Assembly (NCBI GenBank): GCA_038063515.1
Contig: JBBTUY010000003.1
Span: 41,894 to 77,464, forward strand
Source: Patescibacteria group bacterium
GTDB lineage: Bacteria > Patescibacteriota > Minisyncoccia > Phycocordibacterales > UBA9973
DNA length: 35,571 bases
Direction: 5' to 3'
Positions 2,322 to 14,449 of the stretch are shown piece after piece. Position 1 is the first letter of the stretch, and the number at the start of each line of letters is the position of its first letter. Under the pieces are notes generated by a model, which saw only the letters and a program-made list of their open reading frames with translations, did not search any database and was not told where the DNA came from. The translations under genes and the position numbers were made by a program.

Positions 2322-5300
2322 ATGAAAATAACTTCATCTGGGCTGGTATCGAAGATGTCTAAATTAACAGTTTTCTTTATTATCACCTCATTTGTTGTAA
2401 CTCCTCTTGTGCCAGTTTTCGCCCAAGAAGCTGAAGTAATTGTTTCTCTTTCAGACCAAGTAGAAAGTGAACCAATCTTTCCAGGCCAGGTGCTTGGCGA
2501 GACAATTGAAGCTCCTGTCGATGAAGAAACTTCTCCTACTATAGAACCCCCAGCTGAAGAAGTGCTTCCTCCTGAAGAAGAAAAACCGATAGAAGAGAAG
2601 CCTATCGAGGAAGACCCAGAAATGATGGCTCTTATGGCTGGTGGTGTTGGCGGTCCAGGAAGCCTAACTCTTTCACCTGATACTAGAAATAATCTATCTT
2701 CTGAGGTTGATGATCTAGATGGTAGTTTGGTGTATAAATATGATATAAAAGTTCCTCCAGGAAGAAATGATATAACCACTCCAAAAGTTTCTTTAGTATA
2801 TAACAGTAAGTACGCCAATAATGATTCTGTGGTTGGATCTGGGTGGTCAGTAAATATTCCCTCTATTGAACGAATAAACAAAACAGGTATCACCACTTTA
2901 TATTCAGATAATTATTTCTATTCATCTATCGATGGAGAATTAGTTTCACTTGGTAGCGGTAATTATGCTGCTAAAGTAGAAAAAGGTAATTTTCTAAAAT
3001 ATAATCTGACAAGTAGTGTTTGGACGGTAACTGACAAGCAAGGAACTGTCTATAAATTTGGTACTAACGCTGCTGAAAGACAAGACAACCCCGGAGACAG
3101 TTCGAAAGTATATAAGTGGATGCTCCAAGAGGTCAGAGATACTAATGACAATTATATTGAATATACTTACTATAAAGATGCGGGACAAATATATCCATCG
3201 CAGATAACTTATTCAGGAAATGGTAGTACTGCTGGGGTTTTGGAGGTTAATTTCGATAGAACTAGCCGAACCGCGCTTCCCGCTTTTTACAATACAGGCT
3301 TTGCAGTAACGACCAGTTATCGCATCACCGAGATCAGAACTGAAGTAAATAATATTTGGGCTAGAAAATATACTCTTGGCTATGCTATTCCAGATAACGG
3401 CGTGGGATCTCTTTTAGATACTATTGTTGAATCAGGACAGGATGATAGCAGTACAATTGTAACATTACCAGCTGTTGATTTTGACTACCAAGCCTCTACT
3501 AGAAGCTGGACCCAAAATACATCTTGGGGTTTACCTTTATCACTTGTTGCTGGAGGTAGTGATACAGGTACAAGAATGGCTGACATTAATGGTGACGGGC
3601 TTCTGGATTTACTTTGTCACACCAACAATACCTCAGACACAATATGCGACAAGAATAAACCCAGGATCTTTCTCAACGATGGTGATGGAACTTGGACAGA
3701 TGTGAGTAGTACTTGGTTATTTCCTCTTATAGGGGGGTCTGGTAGTGATCGTGAATATTTTCTTTCAACAAGTACTAGTGGTGATCGTGGTCTAAGAGCT
3801 GTAGATATAAATGGTGATGGCCTAGCAGATTTAGTAACGGGGAATGGGTCAGATCGTTATGTGTATCTTAATACTGGTTCTGGCTGGACGTACAATTCTT
3901 CCTGGGGTCTACCTTTACCTTTTTCTATAGGTGGAGATCCTGGCACAAGAATGGCTGACGTTAATGGTGATGGATTACTCGACATGCTTTGTCACAACAA
4001 CGCTACATCTTCTGAACCATACTGTGGTAAAACCACTCCCAAAATCTATCTTAACAATGGTGATGGAACTTGGACAGATGTGAGCAGCACTTGGTTATTT
4101 CCTGTTGTTAATGGAACAGGAACAGATAGAGAATATTTTCTAGATGCAAGTGAAGGTGCTGATAGTGGTCTGAGAACTTTTGACATAAATGGTGATGGGT
4201 TAGTAGATTTAGTTGCTAGAAGAAATACAGATTCATATGCATACATAAACAACGGCTCTGGTTGGACTCACTATGCTTGGGGGTTATCCTTGCCGACATA
4301 TATCGGTGGTGACCCCGGGACAAGAGTAGCCGACATTAATGCGGATGGTTTAGCCGATCTACTTTGTCACAACAACGCTACATCAGGAGATGCTTATTGT
4401 GATAAAAATAATCCAAAAATTTATTTAAACAAAGGTGACGGAACGTGGATGGATTTAAGTAGCACTTGGTTATTTCCTCTTATAGGAGGGTCTGGTAGTG
4501 ATCGTGAATATTTTCTTTCGGCAAGTCAAGGTAGTGACAGTGGTTTAAGGATTGCTGATTTTAATGGTGATGGCATTAATGATCTTGTGGTGAGAAGAGA
4601 TTCAGATTCATATGTTTACTTAAATAACACAACTGTTCCGTCAAACTTGCTTAACGAAATAAACTATTCTCAAGGAGGCAATACAACAATAATATATAAA
4701 GCTACGCCACAATTTACAAGTGGTGCTAGTTTACTTAATCCATCTCTGCCTCTTGTGACTCATCTTGTGCAACAAATAGTTACTAACGATGGATCAGGAA
4801 CTACAGGAAGTTTAACTTATGAATATGAAGGTGGTTTGTATAAGTACACAGACTACCTAAATAGGAAATTTGTAGGATTTAATTCTATTAAAGCCACAGA
4901 TGCAGAAGGAAATGTAAGAAAAGTTTTTTACCATCAAGGTAACAGTACAAATACTGGTCTTGGTGAATACAGTGATCATATTTCCAAAATGGGCATGCCT
5001 TATCGTGTAGAAGAGTATGATGATAGTAGTAATCTTTATCGTCTAACAGTAGATAAGATAGATAAATACAATATTGGCACCGATCATGATTTCGTAAAAG
5101 TAACTCGTCGTACAGTTTTAGACTACGATGGTGATTCTGACCACAAGGATACTTCGACAGAGTACGGATACGATGACGCTAACGGGAATCTTTTAACAGT
5201 AACAGAGTGGGGTGAGGTTACAGGAAGCACAGATGGGTCATATACAGATATTGGTTCAGATAAGAAAGTTACTACGCTAACTTATGCTACAAATGGCACG

Positions 5301-8300
5301 ACACTTATAAGTGTTCCATATAACGAAACAGTAACGGATCAGTCTTCTTCTAAGGTAAAAGAAAACAAATATTACTACGATGCACAATCATATGGTTCGG
5401 TAACAGATGGGAATCAGACTAAAGTGGAACAATGGGTTGCAAGTAGTACATATATAAACAGTCAGAAAACATACAACTCAACATATGGTTATATAGCTAC
5501 TGAAACCGATCCAAGAGGCAAAGTAACTACTTATACTACTTATGACGGATATAACCTATATCCAGTAACAATTACCGATCCACTTAGCCAGACTATTCAA
5601 TATACTTACGACTATTCTCTGGGAAAACCAAAACAAACTACTGATCAAAATGGATTTGTATATCAAACTGTTTATGATGGACTCGACCGTGTTGCTGCAG
5701 TAAAAATTCCTGACTTTGGTAGTCCCTATTCTGCAGTCACAAAAACTACATATGCTTACACTGATACTTCAGGCTCTGTGAAAGTTCAGAAAACTGAAAA
5801 CCTAGATGGATCAACTGCTGTAGACACTTACCAATATTTTGATGGGCTTGGTCGCTTAATTCAAGAAAGAAAAGAGGCAGAAAGTAACTACAACGTAAAA
5901 GATACTATATACAACGATGTTGGTTTAATTGAAAAACAGTCACTCCCATATAACTCCAGCGGTTCTTCAAAAACTTCTGCAACAGGAACTACTGCGCTTT
6001 ACGTTACTAATACTTACGATCCACTGAAACGTATTTCGACTATAGTTGATGCAACGGGTACTACTAGCTATGCGTACGATCAATGGAAGACTACTGTGAC
6101 TGATAAAGAAAGCAATATGAAAGGTTACTATAAAGATGCTTTCGGCAATCTCATAAAAGTGGATGAAGTAAATGGTGGTTCTACTTACACGACAAATTAC
6201 GAATACAATCTCAATAATAAGCTCACTAAGATCACAGATGCATTAAGTAATCTACGTAACTTCACGTACGATGGTCTCGGTAGGAGATTAACAGCAGAAG
6301 ATTTGCATGCATCTGGTGATGGTACGTATGGTACATGGACTTATGCATACGACAATGCAGGGAATCTAACTCAAACTGTAAGCCCACGATCACTTACGAC
6401 GAATTACACATATAACGACATCAATCAGCAGTTAACAGAAGATTATACTGGCGTAGGTGGAACTGAAATTACTTATACCTACGGTGGATGTACTAATGGT
6501 GTAGAAAAACTTTGCTCAGTCATAATGGCTTCTGGTGCTAATACTGCATATACCTACGATTCAAATGGTAATGTTGCTAGTGAAGCAAAAACGATAAACA
6601 GTGTTGCTTATACCACTTCTTACACCTATGACAGACAAGGAAACAAATTAGTTATCACTTACCCAGACAGTGCTGAAGTTAAATATACATTTAACTCTGC
6701 GGGACTTCTAGAAAAAGTTGAGCGAAAAGAAAGTGGTGGAGTATTTATTGATATCGTATCTAATTTTGATTATAGTCCAACGGACAAGGTCACAATACAA
6801 GAAGATGCGAATGGATTCGTTACTACTAATACATACGATGACACAAAATTATATAGACTCACTCGTCGTCTCACAGCTATAGGAGGAGAGGAAATGATGC
6901 TTGGTGGAGGAGGTGAAGGAGAGAGTCAAAGTAGGATGAGTCTGATGGAAGGTGAAGAAGAAACAGAACTCCAAGACAAAAAAGGGATACCAAGAGTAGG
7001 GAGTGAGCTTGAGAAAGAAAGGACTCTACGAAGTAAGACATATGTAACTGGATTCAGTGGAGGCAGAGAGATAAAACAAACTCAATTTTCTCAAAATGAT
7101 ATTCATTACCTAGATCCTGCTACTGGAACACTGAAAGACATCAATACTTCGTTAGTAGAAAACTTGCATGGTTTTACTATGAATGACGCCGCATACCAAG
7201 CAAGGTTTAAAAAAGATACTAAAGGAGAATTTTTTACTTTCCAAAATAAACGAGATCATCTCGGCTTATCTCTTCCTCAAAATGTAAAACCTGTAAATGG
7301 ACACATACAAAAATCTAAAGAAGGTGAAGAGAGTCTGATGTACAAAGATGCACTAGGGGCAGGTATTGATGTAGAATTTCTACTTGACCAGACAGAAGTG
7401 AGAAAAGATGTTGTCATAAATAGTTTAGAAGCTCTTGGGGATATTTCTGGTAAAGAAAATTACGAAATTCCATTTGTATTTCGAAGTAATGCTCCAGTAA
7501 CTCTTTCTATTGATGGTAAAATTTTCCCGAGCGGACAATCTTTCATAACTGAAAAAGCTGTGACCCTGACTGATTCTATAGGTATACAGACCCACATCTG
7601 GGGCGCTGTTTTACGAGAAGAGAATGGTACGCGTGTCACTCGTATTCCTATTAGATACGAACAAAAGGGTGGTGTCATATACATGACCAAGCTTCTGCCA
7701 GTCTCATGGCTCGCACAAGCAGAGTTCCCAGCACGTACAGATGCAGTGCTTAGCTACTATTCAAATTCCTCTGGTGACGGAGAGATATATCATACTCACA
7801 GTGTCTGGAACGCTATCCATGACGCTACGTCTGGTTCCGCAGAAAGTACCCCAGGTACTGCATACATGTACAGTGAAGACGCAGGTGCGAGCTACTGGAT
7901 GGCACGTGTCGCATTACCATTTGATACTTCTTCTTTGCCTGATACCGCTACTATTACCAATACTGATTTGAAACTCTACATTGATACGAAAGTAGATGAA
8001 GATAATGATGGTAATGACTTCATACGAGTCGTTCAAAACACTACTGCATCTGCTACAGCACTTGCTGATGGAGATTTTGATCAAATAGGAGCCATAGATA
8101 ACCCTACAGCTGGAGCGAGTGATATAGACATTTCTGGTATTTCTACAGGTGCCTATCGTACTTTCACCTTAAATTCTACTGGTAGAGGTTGGATAAATAA
8201 AACCGGCTATACCAAGCTCGGTCTTCGCGAAGGACATGATGCTAAAGATGCTGCCCCCGATGACGGTACATTTACTGGTGTACGTATCAAGACTGCAAAT

Positions 8301-10838
8301 GCCGCAGGTACTTCACAGGATCCGATTTTAGAAGTTACCTACACTACTAACAGTGCTCCAAGTACACCGACATCGCTTCTCGCAGAAGGTATAAATAATC
8401 CAGTGAGTGTAGCCGACACTGCTCCAGAATTTAGTGCAATATATAACGACACGGATACAGGAGATACTGCCACTCATTATCAAATTCAAGTATCTACGAG
8501 TTCGAGCTTCTCTTCTATTCTCTGGGATTCTACAAAGACGGCTTTAGGTGCATCTCTCGCACAGGGAAGTCGCAGCCCAGATATTACCTACGGAGGCACA
8601 GCATTTGTACTAGACGGTGCTACATATTACTGGCGTATAAAATTCTGGGATAATAGCGACAGTGAAGGAGTGTGGAGTACTTCTACAAGTTCATTTACTA
8701 TGAATAGCTCCTCACCAATTACAGTGAATTTTTATTCTACAGCAGGTGGAGACGGAGAGATTTACCACGAGGATGCAAGTTCTTGGAATACCGTACATGA
8801 TGCATCTACTGGTAGCGCTGATGCTGCTTCAGGAACCTCATATACGTATGTAGAGCACTACACAGCAGACTACTGGATGGCTCGAACTGTCTTACCTTTT
8901 GATACCTCGAGCTTGCCCGACGGCGCAGTGGTCTCCAGTGCGACTTTGTATGTGTATGTAGATTACAAAGAAGATGGTGATAATGATGGAAGTGATTTTA
9001 TCCGAGTAGTTCAAAATACTACAGCTTCATCAACAGGACTTATCAATGGCGACTATGATCAAGTAGGAAGTATCGATAATCCTACAGCAGGAGCGACGGA
9101 TACTGACATCACAGGTATTTCGACGGGTGCATATCTAGTAATTCCTCTAAATACGACAGGGAAGTCTTGGATCAGTAAAACAGGTGCTACAAAGCTTGGT
9201 TTACGAGAAGGGCATGATGCTACTGATAATGCTTCAAGTATAAATACGAGCCTCACAGGTGTACGTATTAAGACTGCAAATGCCACAGGTACTTCGCAGG
9301 ATCCATATTTAGCTATTACGTACACATCTCTTCCAACTTCACTAAGTGTGGTGCAAGACTTAAACTACACATATGATGCGAATGGCAACATCCTTACCAT
9401 CATCAATGACTCTGAGACAGATTCTGCGAAGACTGTCACGTATAGTTATGACGACCTTAATAGATTGCTCTCGGCTACCGCTACTTCTGTCGCCGGAGGA
9501 CAGTCCACATATACCCATACTTACGTCTACGATGCCCTGGGAAACATTACTTCCGGCCCAATAGGCTCTTACACCTATGCAGGTACAAACTACGCTAATC
9601 CACACGCTGCAACGTCTATAAACGGTGTTACATATACCTACGACAATAGTGGTAATGTTACAGGTAACGGCTCCTTGGCTAATACATGGAACTACAAAGA
9701 TCAACTCACTCAAGCAGTTCTAGGAGGAGTAACTTCAACTTATACTTACGATCATATGGGCGAGCGTGCAACACTTGCTAACGGTACGACCACCACGGCA
9801 TATCCAAATGATCTCTACAATACCGATGGCACCAAGAAAACTAAATCTGTTTACGCAGGGGATAATTTAGTAGCAACTATTGAAACCGTAAGCAGTGTTG
9901 TAACTCCTTACTACACTCACACAGATCATTTGGGATCGACAACTGCAACTTCAGATGGTTCAGGTGCTCTTGTTGAGACATTAGACTACTTCCCATTCGG
10001 AAATCAGAGAATTTCTTCAGGTGCTCACACAGAACAGAGACAATATATAGGACAGGAGTATGACGAAGAAACAAATTTAAACTATCTTAACGCCCGTTAC
10101 TACAATAGCCAGACAGGTAAGTTTATATCCCAAGACCCAGTTTTCTTAGGGCTTGGAGTTGATCCTCGTACTCAAGAAGCACTTAGAGATCCTCAATCTT
10201 TAAACTCCTACAGTTATGCAAGAAATAACCCGATTACTTTGAGTGATCCGAATGGTGAATGGGTACACATCGCTATCGGAGCAGGTGCTGGCATTGTAGG
10301 ACAGTATGGTTATGACGTATATAACAACATCAATAATGACGGATTCAGTGCTGGTGCATTCGTATCTAATCTATCAAGCGGTAAGACGTATTTGACAAGA
10401 GGTGCACAGGGGGCTGCGATCGCAGCAACGGGAGGTGCTGTAGCGGCTGCTGGAACATCAGTAGGTATTGGAGTAGTGGGACAGTCAGTTGTTATGGGTG
10501 GTGTAACTGGAGCAGTAGGAGCTGGAGGCAACGCTTTTCTCGGAGAGTCAGTAACACCTGGATCTGTCGCAGTTGACTCTGTGGTCGGCGCATTAACATT
10601 CGGAGCCTCAAGTGTCATTCCTAAGGTTCCTGGAAGACTACCTAACTTCGGTACACAAGCTTTTGTTTCAGGTAAGCATACCCAGCAAAGCGCAATGAAT
10701 CTCGGTGTTGATGCAGGTGGAAATTATATTTCAGCTATAATGAATGATATATCCAAACAAATTAAGGATCTGCAAAAACAAGTTAGTAACCTAAAACAAA
10801 GTAATAATAATTCAAGCAATAAAAAGAAGAACAAATAA
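2322..10838 (+). CDS. Giant RHS/YD-repeat polymorphic toxin (SpvB + FG-GAP/VCBS + YD shell + RHS core + C-terminal domain)
   Basis: Sec signal (..PVFA/QE) and acidic linker. SpvB-like N-terminus (IKVPPGRN, VSLVYNS, GSGWS, YKWMLQEVRDTNDN), repeated DINGDG motifs and many YD repeats. RHS core signature YIGQEYDEETNLNYLNARYYNSQTGKFISQDP...NSYSYARNNPITLSDPNG. Confidence 0.95.
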   Translation: MKITSSGLVSKMSKLTVFFIITSFVVTPLVPVFAQEAEVIVSLSDQVESEPIFPGQVLGETIEAPVDEETSPTIEPPAEEVLPPEEEKPIEEKPIEEDPEMMALMAGGVGGPGSLTLSPDTRNNLSSEVDDLDGSLVYKYDIKVPPGRNDITTPKVSLVYNSKYANNDSVVGSGWSVNIPSIERINKTGITTLYSDNYFYSSIDGELVSLGSGNYAAKVEKGNFLKYNLTSSVWTVTDKQGTVYKFGTNAAERQDNPGDSSKVYKWMLQEVRDTNDNYIEYTYYKDAGQIYPSQITYSGNGSTAGVLEVNFDRTSRTALPAFYNTGFAVTTSYRITEIRTEVNNIWARKYTLGYAIPDNGVGSLLDTIVESGQDDSSTIVTLPAVDFDYQASTRSWTQNTSWGLPLSLVAGGSDTGTRMADINGDGLLDLLCHTNNTSDTICDKNKPRIFLNDGDGTWTDVSSTWLFPLIGGSGSDREYFLSTSTSGDRGLRAVDINGDGLADLVTGNGSDRYVYLNTGSGWTYNSSWGLPLPFSIGGDPGTRMADVNGDGLLDMLCHNNATSSEPYCGKTTPKIYLNNGDGTWTDVSSTWLFPVVNGTGTDREYFLDASEGADSGLRTFDINGDGLVDLVARRNTDSYAYINNGSGWTHYAWGLSLPTYIGGDPGTRVADINADGLADLLCHNNATSGDAYCDKNNPKIYLNKGDGTWMDLSSTWLFPLIGGSGSDREYFLSASQGSDSGLRIADFNGDGINDLVVRRDSDSYVYLNNTTVPSNLLNEINYSQGGNTTIIYKATPQFTSGASLLNPSLPLVTHLVQQIVTNDGSGTTGSLTYEYEGGLYKYTDYLNRKFVGFNSIKATDAEGNVRKVFYHQGNSTNTGLGEYSDHISKMGMPYRVEEYDDSSNLYRLTVDKIDKYNIGTDHDFVKVTRRTVLDYDGDSDHKDTSTEYGYDDANGNLLTVTEWGEVTGSTDGSYTDIGSDKKVTTLTYATNGTTLISVPYNETVTDQSSSKVKENKYYYDAQSYGSVTDGNQTKVEQWVASSTYINSQKTYNSTYGYIATETDPRGKVTTYTTYDGYNLYPVTITDPLSQTIQYTYDYSLGKPKQTTDQNGFVYQTVYDGLDRVAAVKIPDFGSPYSAVTKTTYAYTDTSGSVKVQKTENLDGSTAVDTYQYFDGLGRLIQERKEAESNYNVKDTIYNDVGLIEKQSLPYNSSGSSKTSATGTTALYVTNTYDPLKRISTIVDATGTTSYAYDQWKTTVTDKESNMKGYYKDAFGNLIKVDEVNGGSTYTTNYEYNLNNKLTKITDALSNLRNFTYDGLGRRLTAEDLHASGDGTYGTWTYAYDNAGNLTQTVSPRSLTTNYTYNDINQQLTEDYTGVGGTEITYTYGGCTNGVEKLCSVIMASGANTAYTYDSNGNVASEAKTINSVAYTTSYTYDRQGNKLVITYPDSAEVKYTFNSAGLLEKVERKESGGVFIDIVSNFDYSPTDKVTIQEDANGFVTTNTYDDTKLYRLTRRLTAIGGEEMMLGGGGEGESQSRMSLMEGEEETELQDKKGIPRVGSELEKERTLRSKTYVTGFSGGREIKQTQFSQNDIHYLDPATGTLKDINTSLVENLHGFTMNDAAYQARFKKDTKGEFFTFQNKRDHLGLSLPQNVKPVNGHIQKSKEGEESLMYKDALGAGIDVEFLLDQTEVRKDVVINSLEALGDISGKENYEIPFVFRSNAPVTLSIDGKIFPSGQSFITEKAVTLTDSIGIQTHIWGAVLREENGTRVTRIPIRYEQKGGVIYMTKLLPVSWLAQAEFPARTDAVLSYYSNSSGDGEIYHTHSVWNAIHDATSGSAESTPGTAYMYSEDAGASYWMARVALPFDTSSLPDTATITNTDLKLYIDTKVDEDNDGNDFIRVVQNTTASATALADGDFDQIGAIDNPTAGASDIDISGISTGAYRTFTLNSTGRGWINKTGYTKLGLREGHDAKDAAPDDGTFTGVRIKTANAAGTSQDPILEVTYTTNSAPSTPTSLLAEGINNPVSVADTAPEFSAIYNDTDTGDTATHYQIQVSTSSSFSSILWDSTKTALGASLAQGSRSPDITYGGTAFVLDGATYYWRIKFWDNSDSEGVWSTSTSSFTMNSSSPITVNFYSTAGGDGEIYHEDASSWNTVHDASTGSADAASGTSYTYVEHYTADYWMARTVLPFDTSSLPDGAVVSSATLYVYVDYKEDGDNDGSDFIRVVQNTTASSTGLINGDYDQVGSIDNPTAGATDTDITGISTGAYLVIPLNTTGKSWISKTGATKLGLREGHDATDNASSINTSLTGVRIKTANATGTSQDPYLAITYTSLPTSLSVVQDLNYTYDANGNILTIINDSETDSAKTVTYSYDDLNRLLSATATSVAGGQSTYTHTYVYDALGNITSGPIGSYTYAGTNYANPHAATSINGVTYTYDNSGNVTGNGSLANTWNYKDQLTQAVLGGVTSTYTYDHMGERATLANGTTTTAYPNDLYNTDGTKKTKSVYAGDNLVATIETVSSVVTPYYTHTDHLGSTTATSDGSGALVETLDYFPFGNQRISSGAHTEQRQYIGQEYDEETNLNYLNARYYNSQTGKFISQDPVFLGLGVDPRTQEALRDPQSLNSYSYARNNPITLSDPNGEWVHIAIGAGAGIVGQYGYDVYNNINNDGFSAGAFVSNLSSGKTYLTRGAQGAAIAATGGAVAAAGTSVGIGVVGQSVVMGGVTGAVGAGGNAFLGESVTPGSVAVDSVVGALTFGASSVIPKVPGRLPNFGTQAFVSGKHTQQSAMNLGVDAGGNYISAIMNDISKQIKDLQKQVSNLKQSNNNSSNKKKNK
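3500..4630 (+). repeat. Three ~125-aa intragenic FG-GAP/VCBS repeat units
   Basis: Recurrent WGL.LP...GGD.GTR.AD.NGDG..D.LCH.N.....C.K..P.I.LN.GDGTW.D.SSTWLFP. Segments 3711-3766 and 4464-4519 match at 55/56 nt. Confidence 0.9.
7755..9326 (+). repeat. Duplicated ~195-aa DNRLRE/CBM96-like domain (about 7755-8345 and 8730-9326) separated by an FN3-like domain
   Basis: Both copies share GDGEIYH, YWMAR..LPFDTSSLPD, DNDG.DFIRVVQNTTAS, IDNPTAGA, TKLGLREGHDA and TGVRIKTANA.GTSQDP.L..TYT. The family name is inferred from the FD.S.LP....I..A.L.LY and P.L.VTY pattern. Confidence 0.75.
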
Positions 10839-11294: not shown

Positions 11295-11504
11295 ATGACC
11301 TTTTTGCAATTCGTATTATTATTGTTTGTTGAAGTAATTTTGGTTTATGTAGTTTTTGATGGTCTAAAAACTGGAGTATTGCTCCACCGTCTCGGAGGCA
11401 AGTCAATCAGGGCAAAACAACCGATATCTTTCTGGATGAGCATAGTAGTTACATCTTGCGTAATTCTATTAATTGCATTTGTTTTAATGACTGGTCTTTT
11501 CTAA
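11295..11504 (+). CDS. Small 2-TM membrane protein, possibly a second or orphan immunity protein
   Basis: 69 aa with two hydrophobic stretches, co-oriented 19 nt downstream of the previous gene. Confidence 0.55.
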   Translation: MTFLQFVLLLFVEVILVYVVFDGLKTGVLLHRLGGKSIRAKQPISFWMSIVVTSCVILLIAFVLMTGLF

Positions 11505-11728
11505 ATTTCTAGTTTGATTAGCCGACGTTCTGCTTCACTAATTTCTTTCTCTATTGAAAAGCCGATTTTCTCTTGTTCTTGAGAGTCAGAATTTTCAGTT
11601 GTTTTCAACTGTAGCGGTACTGAGCTTTTTAAAGTAACCTTTCCGTGGTTATAGAGAATTTCCTCAACGAAGTCTAAGACAAATCTTCGTTTGCTCTCAA
11701 ACGTCTTACACTTATCAAATCGAATCTG
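11501..11728 (-). pseudogene. 3' remnant of a large serine recombinase (not in the ORF track)
   Basis: Start-less minus-strand frame: QIRFDKCKTFESKRRFVLDFVEEILYNHGKVTLKSSVPLQLKTTENSDSQEQEKIGFSIEKEISEAERRLIKLEI*. It resembles the F..KR.......V..I......V.L...VP C-terminus of large serine recombinases. Upstream it runs into an in-frame TGA inside the RAYT end repeat. Confidence 0.6.
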
Positions 11729-11769
11729 GATAATGGGATAATGGGGTCAGCCACCATTTATCCTAAATA

Positions 11770-11778
11770 TGATATAAT
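11770..11778 (+). promoter_or_regulatory. Extended -10 promoter of the RAYT gene (leaderless layout)
   Basis: TG-A-TATAAT with the hexamer at 11773-11778, 6 nt before the ATG at 11785. Confidence 0.7.
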
Positions 11779-11784
11779 AAATTT

Positions 11785-12456
11785 ATGCCAAGAATTGAAA
11801 GAGTCGATGTGGGCGGAGAAATATACCATGTGATAAACAGAGCTAATTCCAGAGTTAAAATTTTTGATAATGATGGCGATTACAAAAATCTTGAAGCAAT
11901 TTTAGAAGAAGCAGTAACGAAGTTTGACATGAGATTGTTGGCATACTGTATTATGCCTAATCATTGGCATTTAGTTTTACATCCTAAACAAGATGGAGAT
12001 TTATCCAAGTTTATGGGTTGGCTAACCAATACTCATACAAGACGTTGGCATACCTTAAAAGGAACGATAGGTCAGGGTCATTTGTATCAAGGTAGATACA
12101 AATCTTTTATTTGCCAGAATGATTATCATTTTCTTGCTCTTGTAAGATATGTAGAGAGAAATGCCAAAAGAGCAAATATGGTCAAAAAAGTAGAAGATTG
12201 GAAATGGAGTAGTGCATGGAGAAGGGTGTATGGAATACAGAATCAAAAGAAGATTTTAAGTTCGTGGCCCATCTCTATACCAAAAAATTATTTAGAATAC
12301 CTAAATGAGTCGCAGAACGAGGAAGAAGTTGATATGATTAGGAGGTCGATTATTAAAAATATTCCTTTTGGAGGTGATTCTTGGTGTGATAGAGTTGTGA
12401 AGAAGTTTAATTTAGAGCAAACACTTCGTGGGGTAGGCAGGCCTAAAGGAAAATAA
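11785..12456 (+). CDS. REP-associated tyrosine transposase (RAYT/TnpA-REP, Y1 HUH family)
   Basis: YHVINRAN, HUH motif AYCIMPNHWHLVL, GHLYQGRYKS, catalytic-Tyr region RYVERN, DWKWSS and C-terminal RGVGRPK. The frame is intact. Confidence 0.93.
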   Translation: MPRIERVDVGGEIYHVINRANSRVKIFDNDGDYKNLEAILEEAVTKFDMRLLAYCIMPNHWHLVLHPKQDGDLSKFMGWLTNTHTRRWHTLKGTIGQGHLYQGRYKSFICQNDYHFLALVRYVERNAKRANMVKKVEDWKWSSAWRRVYGIQNQKKILSSWPISIPKNYLEYLNESQNEEEVDMIRRSIIKNIPFGGDSWCDRVVKKFNLEQTLRGVGRPKGK

Positions 12457-12499
12457 TGGTGGCTGACCCAATTAACCCAATTAACCTAACCCAATTAAC

Positions 12500-12551
12500 C
12501 CACTATTTGTCCCAAAATATGATATAATGAATTTATCCTAAGAATTGAAAG
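12500..12551 (+). repeat. Degenerate direct copy (L2) of the RAYT left end, promoter and first codons
   Basis: Aligns to 11751-11801 at about 45/52 positions. TGATATAAT is retained, but the ATG is changed to ATC. Confidence 0.85.
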
Positions 12552-12580
12552 GATAGATAAGGAATAAATAATCAAAAGAG

Positions 12581-14449
12581 GTGATGGGTTCTACTCAAAA
12601 AATATCAAACAGAATAAAAAGAAACCATTTTGATCTCTTTTTGGCACAGATACTGCTTTTCTTTTTACCCTTAGCATATCTTCCTGGCTTCGGATCGTAC
12701 AATGCCCCTCGGTATTTTTTCTTTAGCGCTACCACTCTCTGGCTTTTTGGTCTTTGTGTTTTTAACTTTCTCAAAGAAGATAAAATTAGACGCACGGAGT
12801 ATGTTGATACATTTAAAAATTGGCGAGTTTATGGACTTCTTTTTTATCTATTAGCCTTTTTGGTTGTTTCGATTACGAGCATAGATCCGGCCGTTTCCTT
12901 TTTCTCAACTTTCTATCGCACTGATGGGTTTCTATCTATCCTATTTCTATCCATGTTTTCTTTTTCAGTATATTTTTTGATTAAGAAATACAAAAATAAA
13001 GGTCTAGAAAGTTTGCTTTCCGCCTCCGTTCTCGGCTCACTAGTTCTGTCTTTTTTAATATGGCTGAAAATACCTAACATAGGAGGCACCTTCGGTAATT
13101 CTTCAATAGCTGCTTCTTTTCTGATATGGAACGTGTTTTTTGCATTATTTCTTTTTATAAAATACAGAATGGAGTGGAAGGCATGGATTTGGGGTATTTC
13201 ATTTTTTGTTTTGGTATTTTCACCTTTATTTTTTAACTGGGAGATTATCTTTCGTGGAGAATATGCTCAAATAACTTCCTTGCTGGGAGAAGCTCGTGGT
13301 GCAGCTATGGGAATAATTGCTGGTCTTCTTCTTGCCATCTTCACCTGGCTTGCTTTCCAGTCCGATAAAATCCGCAGATATTTAGGAATAGGGCTGACCA
13401 TTTTACTTTTAGTGTCTACTCTCTTTGGTGGAATTCTACTGATTAAAAATTCTTCGCCTGTGCATCAGGCTTTCGCTGAAATGGGTGGAAAAGCGCGTTT
13501 TTCTTTTTGGAATAGTGCATGGCTAGGCTTCAAAGAGCAGCCTGTTCTTGGTACAGGGCCAGGCACTTTCAGTTATTCTTTTCATAAATTTTTCGATACA
13601 GAAATACTCACAAAAGAAAACAATTTTGAGGCAATTGTGGATCGTTCACATAATATTTTTTTTGAGACGATTATCAGTGGTGGCTTACTACTCTTATTTG
13701 GTTTACTTTTTTTTCTCATTTCCATAGCTACGTCCATTTACCAGATGCGTCTGCGATCGGAAGTATCGAATATTGGCTCCGCCATCTTTTTGGGCGCGCT
13801 TTTTTGCTGGTTGCTCCAAGCACAGCTTGTTTTTGATTCAATCTCATCACTGACTATGCTTTTTTTAGTGTCAGGAATGGCATACGCCGGAAGCTATGAC
13901 AACAAAAATAACATTCATACAAATGAATTTTCTTCCACTAGAAAATCAGTTGTCATCTCGAAGTCAGACAAGTTTGTCTATGCCATAGTAATTATTCTTC
14001 TTTCAATAATTTTTATCCTAGGAATATTTTTGCCTTTTCGTAAGAACCGAATAATGTATCGAACTAACGACATGTTCCTACCAGAACGAGCTTATAGCTG
14101 GGTAAAACTTGAAGGTACATCTAGTATGGGTGATTCTTATGATAGCGTGCTTCTTTTCAACCGTCTTGCTAAAAGTTATGCCAACAGGAATGATTTACGA
14201 AAATTAGATGAAGCAAAAAAGAAAGTTTTAGGACAAGAACTCGACAATGTCATACATCATTTGTATTATCTCTCTGTGCGCCATAATGATTTTGACTTGA
14301 TTCTTCTAAATATACAGTTTCATTATTTGAGGATGTATTTAGTAAATGATTTCTCCGGCCCTCTCTTAAGCGAAATCAAGGAACTTATTCTTCAAGCACA
14401 AGCCCTTTCACCTACAGATCCTCGACCTGAGATATACAATCCTCGGTAG
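12581..14449 (+). CDS. O-antigen ligase (WaaL/Wzy_C)-like polytopic membrane protein
   Basis: More than 10 TM helices. Motifs GTFGN, ARGA, R...W..AW.GFKEQPVLGTGPGTF and DRSHNIFFE. The start is GTG 12581 or ATG 12584. Confidence 0.85.
   Translation: MMGSTQKISNRIKRNHFDLFLAQILLFFLPLAYLPGFGSYNAPRYFFFSATTLWLFGLCVFNFLKEDKIRRTEYVDTFKNWRVYGLLFYLLAFLVVSITSIDPAVSFFSTFYRTDGFLSILFLSMFSFSVYFLIKKYKNKGLESLLSASVLGSLVLSFLIWLKIPNIGGTFGNSSIAASFLIWNVFFALFLFIKYRMEWKAWIWGISFFVLVFSPLFFNWEIIFRGEYAQITSLLGEARGAAMGIIAGLLLAIFTWLAFQSDKIRRYLGIGLTILLLVSTLFGGILLIKNSSPVHQAFAEMGGKARFSFWNSAWLGFKEQPVLGTGPGTFSYSFHKFFDTEILTKENNFEAIVDRSHNIFFETIISGGLLLLFGLLFFLISIATSIYQMRLRSEVSNIGSAIFLGALFCWLLQAQLVFDSISSLTMLFLVSGMAYAGSYDNKNNIHTNEFSSTRKSVVISKSDKFVYAIVIILLSIIFILGIFLPFRKNRIMYRTNDMFLPERAYSWVKLEGTSSMGDSYDSVLLFNRLAKSYANRNDLRKLDEAKKKVLGQELDNVIHHLYYLSVRHNDFDLILLNIQFHYLRMYLVNDFSGPLLSEIKELILQAQALSPTDPRPEIYNPR

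Follow-up and report, generated by a model that had tools for sequence, protein, structure and literature searches.

A 35,571-nt stretch of contig JBBTUY010000003.1 (assembly GCA_038063515.1, positions 41,894 to 77,464), hereafter the window, carries an element whose two ends are extended outward by short, iterated copies of their own tips. The host is a groundwater Patescibacteria-type bacterium with a 654-kb genome, in which the element is present as a single copy. At its center lies an open reading frame (ORF) of 223 amino acids (aa) at 11785-12456 on the plus strand, with a TAA stop at 12454-12456. The encoded protein is a Y1/HUH nuclease, and the locus fits the description of a TIRtron, that is, a TIRYT gene framed by inverted copies of its own GGGGWSAS-bearing recognition site. 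The extra tip copies, collectively referred to as the stutter, are a family-wide property of these elements, and they may be scars of transposase activity at the element ends. The locus comprises the following features.

11728-11735, plus strand: extra unit of the left side (GGATAATG), which duplicates the left end's first 8 nt and lies directly outside that end; parsed as one unit
11736-11758, plus strand: intact left end, consisting of outer arm, GGGGTCAG (TIRYT motif GGGGWSAS) and inner arm; perfect arm at 11744-11758
11770-11778, plus strand: extended -10-like box TGATATAAT between the left end and the start codon, recognized by eye only
11785-12456, plus strand: TIRYT gene, encoding a Y1/HUH domain (aa 13-126) and a helical C-terminal extension of ~90 aa
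12455-12477, minus strand: intact right end, reading inward GGTTAATT, GGGTCAG and inner arm; perfect arm at 12455-12469
12478-12500, minus strand: right array outside the intact end, with three extra units of 9, 5 and 9 nt (GGTTAATTG, GGTTA, GGTTAATTG; 12478-12486, 12487-12491 and 12492-12500), each beginning at the right outer tip
12501-12558, plus strand: putative older TIRYT remnant, similar to the inner part of the left end, the -10 box and the opening codons of a TIRYT gene

The ORF is bounded by a perfect 15-bp inverted repeat, as claimed in a preliminary description of this DNA: GGGTCAGCCACCATT at 11744-11758 has its exact reverse complement at 12455-12469, where the right arm overlaps the TAA stop of the transposase ORF. 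When mismatches are allowed, the repeat extends to 25 nt at 92% identity (11734-11758 and 12455-12479). Its 11-nt core, GGTCAGCCACC, occurs twice in the window with at most one mismatch, both times at the element ends, whereas shuffled sequences are expected to contain 0.15 occurrences and none of 100 shuffles reached two. A scan of the genome for the repeat, suggested in the same description, located the exact core only at the two element ends (654,179 bases in seven contigs); the six one-mismatch matches found genome-wide equal the level of a reversed-pattern control (3+3). The claim that each end iterates its own tip also holds, with one 8-nt unit at the left end and, at the right, three units (9, 5 and 9 nt). 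Tandem Repeats Finder agrees, reporting 11728-11745 (period 8, 2.2 copies, 100% matches) on the left and 12466-12502 (period 9, 4.6 copies) or, in an alternative parse, 12473-12500 (period 14, 2.0 copies, 100% matches) on the right. The extra units copy the variant of their own end, ATAAT on the left and TTAATT on the right, and GGTTAATTG is found three times at the right array.

Assemblers can err on short tandem repeats at the boundaries of repeats, and the preliminary description had named an assembly artefact as a possible objection. Logan contigs of two runs (X1 and X3, possibly from the source study) cover 11300-12900 with 0 differences, and a 260-nt Logan contig from a different study (X5) covers 11722-11981, including the left stutter, with 0 differences as well. 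The sequence is thus identical in contigs of three runs and two studies, so a single faulty assembly does not account for the stutter, and the same pattern is present in 160 loci from many independent assemblies. An artefact is accordingly a vanishingly improbable explanation.

Several searches agree on the class of the protein. Pfam Y1_Tnp matches aa 13-126 (E 1.6e-20); the HUH motif is H60-W61-H62 (HWH), and Y122 is the candidate catalytic tyrosine. These catalytic residues are intact, and the 161 full-length homologues, drawn from the 163 loci of two independent sets, all have H60, H62 and Y122. Set 1 consists of the best 80 of 191 matches in one-genome-per-species contigs plus three further loci (83 in total), and set 2 of the best 80 of 497 metagenome-contig matches. 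An AlphaFold2 model of the window protein (pLDDT 91.2) has its best fold match in E. coli TnpA_REP (4er8_A; E 1.6e-8, TM-score 0.74 on the target), followed by the IS608 and ISDra2 transposases. A profile of 44 homologues retrieves 4er8 (E 5e-5) and also ISDra2 TnpA from the PDB sequences, and a single-sequence search of the same sequences gives no match at E up to 0.01. The C-terminal extension is predicted to be helical (last 94 aa modelled alone, pLDDT 84.9); these 94 residues have no Pfam match at E up to 10, and their best structural match has a Z of 2.3.

RAYT-like genes with long inverted repeats have been named TIRYTs and the corresponding units TIRtrons, with GGGGWSAS as a shared motif (Di Nocera, De Gregorio and Rocco, 2013, BMC Genomics 14:522). 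Most TIRYTs have been equated with TnpA_REP subclass 2.1, which is made up of long proteins with a C-terminal helix-turn-helix (HTH)-like domain (Bac_DnaA_C, HTH_23 or HTH_28; Quentin et al., 2018, BMC Genomics 19:475). Because this class has already been named in print, a Y1 gene bounded by terminal inverted repeats (TIRs) is not in itself new. As far as the available text of these papers goes, the window element shares with the class a Y1/HUH gene that lies between inverted repeats instead of GTAG REPs, a 3' repeat that overlaps the gene end, a long protein with a C-terminal extension, a conserved serine after the tyrosine helix (S143 here) and the lack of a REP family in the genome. The motif is present as GGGGTCAG at the left end and as TGGGTCAG, one G short, at the right end; 78 of 83 homologous loci in set 1 and 72 of 80 in set 2 have an exact TIR seed of 9 nt or more. 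In contrast to the window element, the published TIRs are single, dimeric or grouped, nested partial tip copies not being described in that text, and the C-terminal HTH of subclass 2.1 is unconfirmed in the window protein given the search results above.

The term RAYT used in the preliminary description proved too loose for this locus. NCBIfam REP_Tyr_transpos (NF047646) scores 68.2 bits, below its cut-off of 80, GTAG is absent from both element ends, and the core search of the 654-kb host genome yielded no dispersed REP family of the repeat; a REP-RAYT identity was therefore rejected. An IS200/IS605 identity was rejected as well, since the ends are inverted rather than direct subterminal hairpins and transpos_IS200 scores 23.3 bits, below its cut-off of 55. 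The REPtron of E. coli TnpA_REP (4ER8) is nonetheless the best structural match and shares with the window element the HUH and single-tyrosine chemistry and a gene bracketed by inverted copies of its own sites. It differs in that the window element has neither GTAG tag nor strong hairpin nor dispersed repeat family, in that a ragged tip fragment is amplified here as opposed to a whole REP or BIME, and in that TIRYT elements move as whole units between sites. The IS200/IS605 enzymes (IS608 and ISDra2 TnpA) are alike in their Y1/HUH fold and single-strand DNA chemistry, whereas their elements have direct-orientation subterminal hairpins on one active strand and no TIR. The window ends are inverted, and each strand therefore carries one copy of the motif.

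The stutter is a family-wide property. Intact ends were located via the innermost inverted-repeat seed of at least 9 nt, and a recurrence was scored when any 8-mer starting at most 12 nt from the conserved motif was found again in the 150 nt outside the end. At least one recurrence is present at 71 of 146 ends in set 1 (150 copies; 48 of 75 loci with an array), compared with 7 copies for reverse-complement words, 12 in the inward direction and 6.8 in shuffled flanks. The corresponding figures for set 2, which include 18 near-identical loci, are 61 of 131 ends (114 copies; 44 of 69 loci), 10, 14 and 5.3. The controls thus amount to ~5-10% of the recurrence signal, and with 7-14 in the orientation and inward controls the possibility that homologous RAYTs lack such repeats, which the preliminary description had considered as grounds for refutation, is not borne out. 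As a check on G-richness, upstream copies accompany 66 of 1117 GGGG runs elsewhere in the same loci (5.9%), as opposed to ~48% of real ends. Copying is also specific to the adjacent end: among 236 ends, words that only the adjacent end contains recur at 111, and those that only the opposite end contains at 19.

For the anatomy of the arrays, units were parsed outward from the intact end after the 18 near-identical loci had been dropped. This parse yielded 300 units at 122 ends, all of which begin at the same outer base and run inward, so that each unit is a nested, tip-anchored copy in the orientation of its own end. Matched lengths range from 6 to 90 nt, with a median of 10 in set 1. Filler between units is absent in 129 of the 300, 1-3 nt long in 93 and longer in 78, leaving at most 3 nt in 222 units. 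The positions at which the copies break off are bimodal and non-random. Relative to the conserved GGGTCA, 143 of 286 units break at or in the G-run and 68 right after TCA or TCAG, with 7 at the two positions between.

Comparisons among closely related copies indicate that arrays arise in place after insertion and turn over next to the intact end. Copies that are 96-99.4% identical and lie at other sites differ in the presence of an array (L116/L118, L175/L173 and L129/L125). L168 and L169 have identical genes and share the same site and right flank; their two outer units are common, and the innermost unit differs (31 vs. 16 nt). A gradient with depth is also seen: a reach of 8 nt or more past the anchor is found in 29% of innermost units, in 12% of those of second rank and in 9% of those of third rank or farther out. 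Breaks of the G-run class become more frequent outward, from 48% to 64% (Fisher p ~0.01, a descriptive value because the units are non-independent). Taken together, the depth gradient, the differing innermost unit and the differing presence of arrays point to addition next to the element and erosion with age.

The TIRYT gene is, judging by its distribution, patchy and mobile. A match at E up to 1e-20 is found in 4 genomes among 60 relatives, only one of which belongs to the 36 same-genus genomes, whereas relatives at 47-77% identity occur in metagenome-assembled genomes labelled Patescibacteria, Omnitrophota, Planctomycetes, Nitrospira, Methylomirabilis, Proteobacteria and Bacteroidota. TIRYT genes at least 99.4% identical are found in different flanks. 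L158, L159 and L160 are copies with at least 99.7% identity whose left flanks cease to match precisely at the tip's first base; this places the edge of the mobile unit at the base from which all stutter units start. L016 and L017 are internally deleted relatives that have kept both ends. For the window element, a base-level empty site was not available, because the best orthologue of the downstream gene among the genus (relative G022; 40 other genomes) is only 48% identical and too distant; no TIRYT match was found in G022.

Other observations concern the surroundings of mobile copies. In the group of L158:713-1645 and L160:1142-2074, the shared repeat extends ~135 nt past the right-end array before the flanks diverge; either the array was carried along with the unit or the right boundary was passed over. 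L122 and L123 differ by 57 nt in the left flank, a difference that ends exactly at the element's first base and resembles an end-adjacent deletion, or else chimeric contigs. TIRYT elements are also nested in other TIRYT genes, at about codon 6 in L170 (1040-1200) and mid-gene in L136, L137 and L028, the insertion sites being that codon-6 position and a conserved THTQRW stretch. Near-identical metagenome copies with mixed flanks (same left and different right, and the reverse) were set aside, as rearrangement, recombination or chimeric contigs are equally possible.

The reading that we prefer, and to which we give middling confidence, is that the stutters are scars left when the transposase nicks an end, a short stretch is resynthesized in repair and the strands are rejoined, with slippage coming afterwards. 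The transposase would nick single-stranded or extruded DNA at the outer boundary of the end and stay attached to the element's 5' phosphate; a host polymerase would then extend the 3'-OH of the flank into the end, over a few bases or up to some tens, and the new 3'-OH would resolve the protein-DNA link, leaving a partial tip copy (bases 1 to n) between the flank and the intact end. Repeated rounds would stack units with the newest next to the element, while slipped-strand deletion between G-runs would trim the older ones. From the arrays we infer the nick (with its strand and position), the synthesis and the rejoining. Their chemistry has a published precedent in the model of BIME growth by E. 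coli TnpA_REP, in which cleavage, extension of the 3'-OH and attack on the Tyr-5'P link add units (Ton-Hoang et al., 2012, Nucleic Acids Research 40:3596, in its available text); by analogy, this would be the simplest chemistry for tip units. Rejoining to a supplied or new 3' end is plausible because a separately added 'attacking' oligonucleotide was joined through its 3'-OH to the cleaved substrate in a cleavage and strand-transfer (CST) assay (Corneloup et al., 2021, Nucleic Acids Research 49:6982, in its available text). The break-point hot spots could be places at which the polymerase runs into the bound protein, or they could reflect a second site of cleavage.

Against this proposal stands a body of evidence that has to be weighed with it. 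Junction microhomology of 1 nt or more is present in 73 of 112 filler-free units (65%), where 28% would be expected; a G follows directly on the break in 176 of 265 units, and 77 of the 112 start with G. Microhomology and G after the break are exactly what enzyme-free slippage predicts. The 1-3-nt fillers of 93 of the 300 units are not expected from exact HUH chemistry, and about half of all ends carry no array. At the window locus, unit number does not vary among contigs of four runs, which by their nature cannot show minority variants. All four window units fall into the G-run and microhomology class, and no biochemistry of any TIRYT was found in the literature searched. The same side of the balance holds two misfits of a proposed cleavage site, which are described below.

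Much of this evidence supports slippage, or microhomology-mediated template switching, at G-rich and weakly palindromic ends in which the transposase plays no part. In addition to the microhomology and the G after the break, half of the break points lie in the G-run, and the window units (8, 9, 5 and 9 nt) are near-perfect tandem repeats whose breaks lie in the G-run and show 1-3 nt of microhomology; for the window, slippage alone would suffice. It fares less well with the family, in which GGGG runs elsewhere rarely have the copies seen at real ends (5.9% vs. ~48%), 39 of 112 filler-free junctions lack microhomology, units reach 90 nt, and a sharp second hot spot follows TCA after a gap at the two preceding positions. 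Units of different length within one array also share a start base that coincides with the boundary of the mobile unit. This fixed outer start, together with the strict orientation and the copying of the adjacent end only, leads us to favour site-specific breakage over generic repeat instability, and we regard slippage without the enzyme as an appreciable but minority possibility. Slippage certainly contributes, and the G-run class would largely represent secondary shortening. Nicking and rejoining by an HUH enzyme, as suggested in the preliminary description, thus stands as the best available explanation with a published model as precedent (Ton-Hoang et al., 2012, in the same text), in an inferred form and with slippage sufficing for the window units.

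Two further explanations assign the arrays to events or functions of other kinds. A new copy could insert into the tip of a resident element in the same orientation, after which the tandem would collapse, by recombination or deletion between its two copies, and leave outside the new copy only the first n bases of the old one. Elements do land in TIRYT genes (at about codon 6 in L170 and mid-gene in L136, L137 and L028), and a remnant of left-end type, beginning directly behind TCAG, comes after the right array of the window. A search for tandem intermediates, in which each locus's own 5' and 3' parts were compared with its flanks by BLAST, gave one locus of 143, that of the window itself, with a directly oriented piece of left-end type downstream of its right end, and none of 146 with a piece of right-end type upstream of its left end. 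Moreover, a free copy and a precise collapse would be needed for every unit of 5-15 nt, and the left flank of the window lacks a matching outer half of an old end, all of which makes insertion into tips improbable. It is somewhat more improbable still that the repeats are selected, either as iterated transposase binding sites or as G-quadruplex 'caps'. Iterated Rep-binding repeats do lie beside nick sites in other HUH systems, the portion of the conserved motif that the units iterate is its G-run, and arrays in some loci would give many G-quadruplex tracts. However, about half of the ends have no array, arrays differ between copies that are 96-100% identical, and unit lengths are ragged and erode outward. 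In the window itself the minus strand has four GGG tracts with loops of 6, 11 and 6 nt, of which the 11-nt loop exceeds the usual limit of 7. The preliminary description, in calling the stutters telomere-like and the right flank a possible G-quadruplex, goes further than these tracts support.

Within the preferred reading, the second hot spot offers a lead to the chemistry. With a slash marking the break, TCA/G corresponds on the complementary strand to C/TGA, which recalls a site of E. coli TnpA_REP; according to the available text, that enzyme cleaves in vitro at C/T or C/A beside a hairpin, with a mapped C/T site of TGCC/TGAT. The parallel fits elements with the GGGGTCAG, GGTGTCAG and GGGGACAG cores, whereas for the GGGGATAAG subtype it does not hold: 0 of 18 units break at the predicted place, and TCA/G as the complement of a C/T cleavage site was rejected as a general rule. 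In the GGTGTCAG subtype the parallel leaves an extra hot spot after GGTG (GGTG/T) unexplained. Because of these misfits the parallel is kept as a lead only.

A more far-reaching idea, which we advance tentatively and hold to be doubtful, is that TIRtron ends log the activity of their transposase, with one tip fragment gained whenever the enzyme acts on a resident element. The arrays would then reveal cuts made in vivo, at the outer boundary and at TCA/G, and the inverted arrangement of the two ends would suggest a symmetric, nick-primed copy-out transposition, with one nick per strand followed by strand-displacement synthesis, unlike the peel-and-paste mode of IS200/IS605. TIRYTs form a large HUH class across many phyla, with 191 genome and 497 metagenome relatives for this clade alone, and no mechanism of a TIRYT was described in the literature searched. 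If the stutters are enzyme scars, they would provide testable cleavage sites, an order of events at the donor site and possibly a read-out of past activity. They would also constitute natural evidence for amplification by cleavage, extension and rejoining, which has been proposed but not shown in vivo for REP and BIME growth. The arrays can further serve as a simple annotation mark of TIRtron ends and explain short G-rich tandem repeats in small genomes. In the text of the literature searched (including Di Nocera et al., 2013; Quentin et al., 2018; Bertels, 2017), no description of the stutter or of nested tip fragments was found. What is added here is replication in two sets with controls, the bimodal breaks, the age gradient, the polymorphism of the innermost unit, the G-run control and the statistics on hairpins.

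These hairpin statistics qualify the statement in the preliminary description that the ends are non-hairpin. It is partly right and agrees with the printed description of the class. In the window, the left end can form a bulged hairpin of -6.0 kcal/mol (z -1.1), which 25 of 200 shuffles equal, and the right end folds no better than shuffles. Weak stems of 5-7 bp are common in the family. Across 246 ends, a perfect stem of at least 5 bp between outer and inner arm is found at 60%, compared with 20% when the arm is shuffled and 41% when it is taken from another locus. For stems of at least 6 bp the values are 36%, 5% and 19%, and in the GGGGATAAG subtype no such stem was seen. Many TIRYT ends are therefore short imperfect palindromes around the conserved motif, with some co-variation and far from REP-grade hairpins.

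Upstream of the transposase gene, the -10-like box TGATATAAT has similar counterparts at the same place in homologous loci. It is not listed by a consensus promoter scan, which requires a -35 hexamer and performed at chance level (5 found vs. 4.4 expected). A related arrangement lies beyond the right array, where 12512-12558 repeats 11762-11808 directly over 47 nt with 85% identity, starting just after the TCAG position. The segment 12501-12558 thus looks like the remnant of an older TIRYT left end. Compared with L179:1440-1520, the remnant (12501-12580) runs into GGATAGATA, the ancestral start region of the downstream Wzy_C gene. GGATAGATA can be aligned with the region around the start codon (MKRID) in G022's orthologous Wzy_C gene; the upstream region in G022 also has a TGATAT box and ACTATTTGT. 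The end of an old transposon may accordingly have become the promoter and start region of the downstream gene.

On the left side of the element, an open frame of 74 codons without a start codon (11504-11725, minus strand) runs up to the left stutter; it matches no Pfam family and could represent the 3' portion of a gene that the insertion interrupted. Farther upstream, 2322-10838 encodes a 2838-aa protein with SpvB, TcdB_toxin_midN, FG-GAP and RHS-repeat domains, a giant protein of the polymorphic-toxin type, and small ORFs that belong to no family follow it.

In run X6, a contig with a loose end at window position 11740 comes from another organism in the same kind of sample and has a different TIRYT left end with units of tip fragments. 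The host genome itself contains three distant Y1 paralogues with 28-37% identity (L013, G000:C4:89281-90021; L011, G000:C3:24130-24804; L012, G000:C6:19154-19870). All three are flanked by much stronger palindromes, one copy of which overlaps the stop codon. At L013, an 11-nt partial copy of the hairpin's outer arm lies directly outside the hairpin, and the stutter may therefore extend to another Y1 subfamily.

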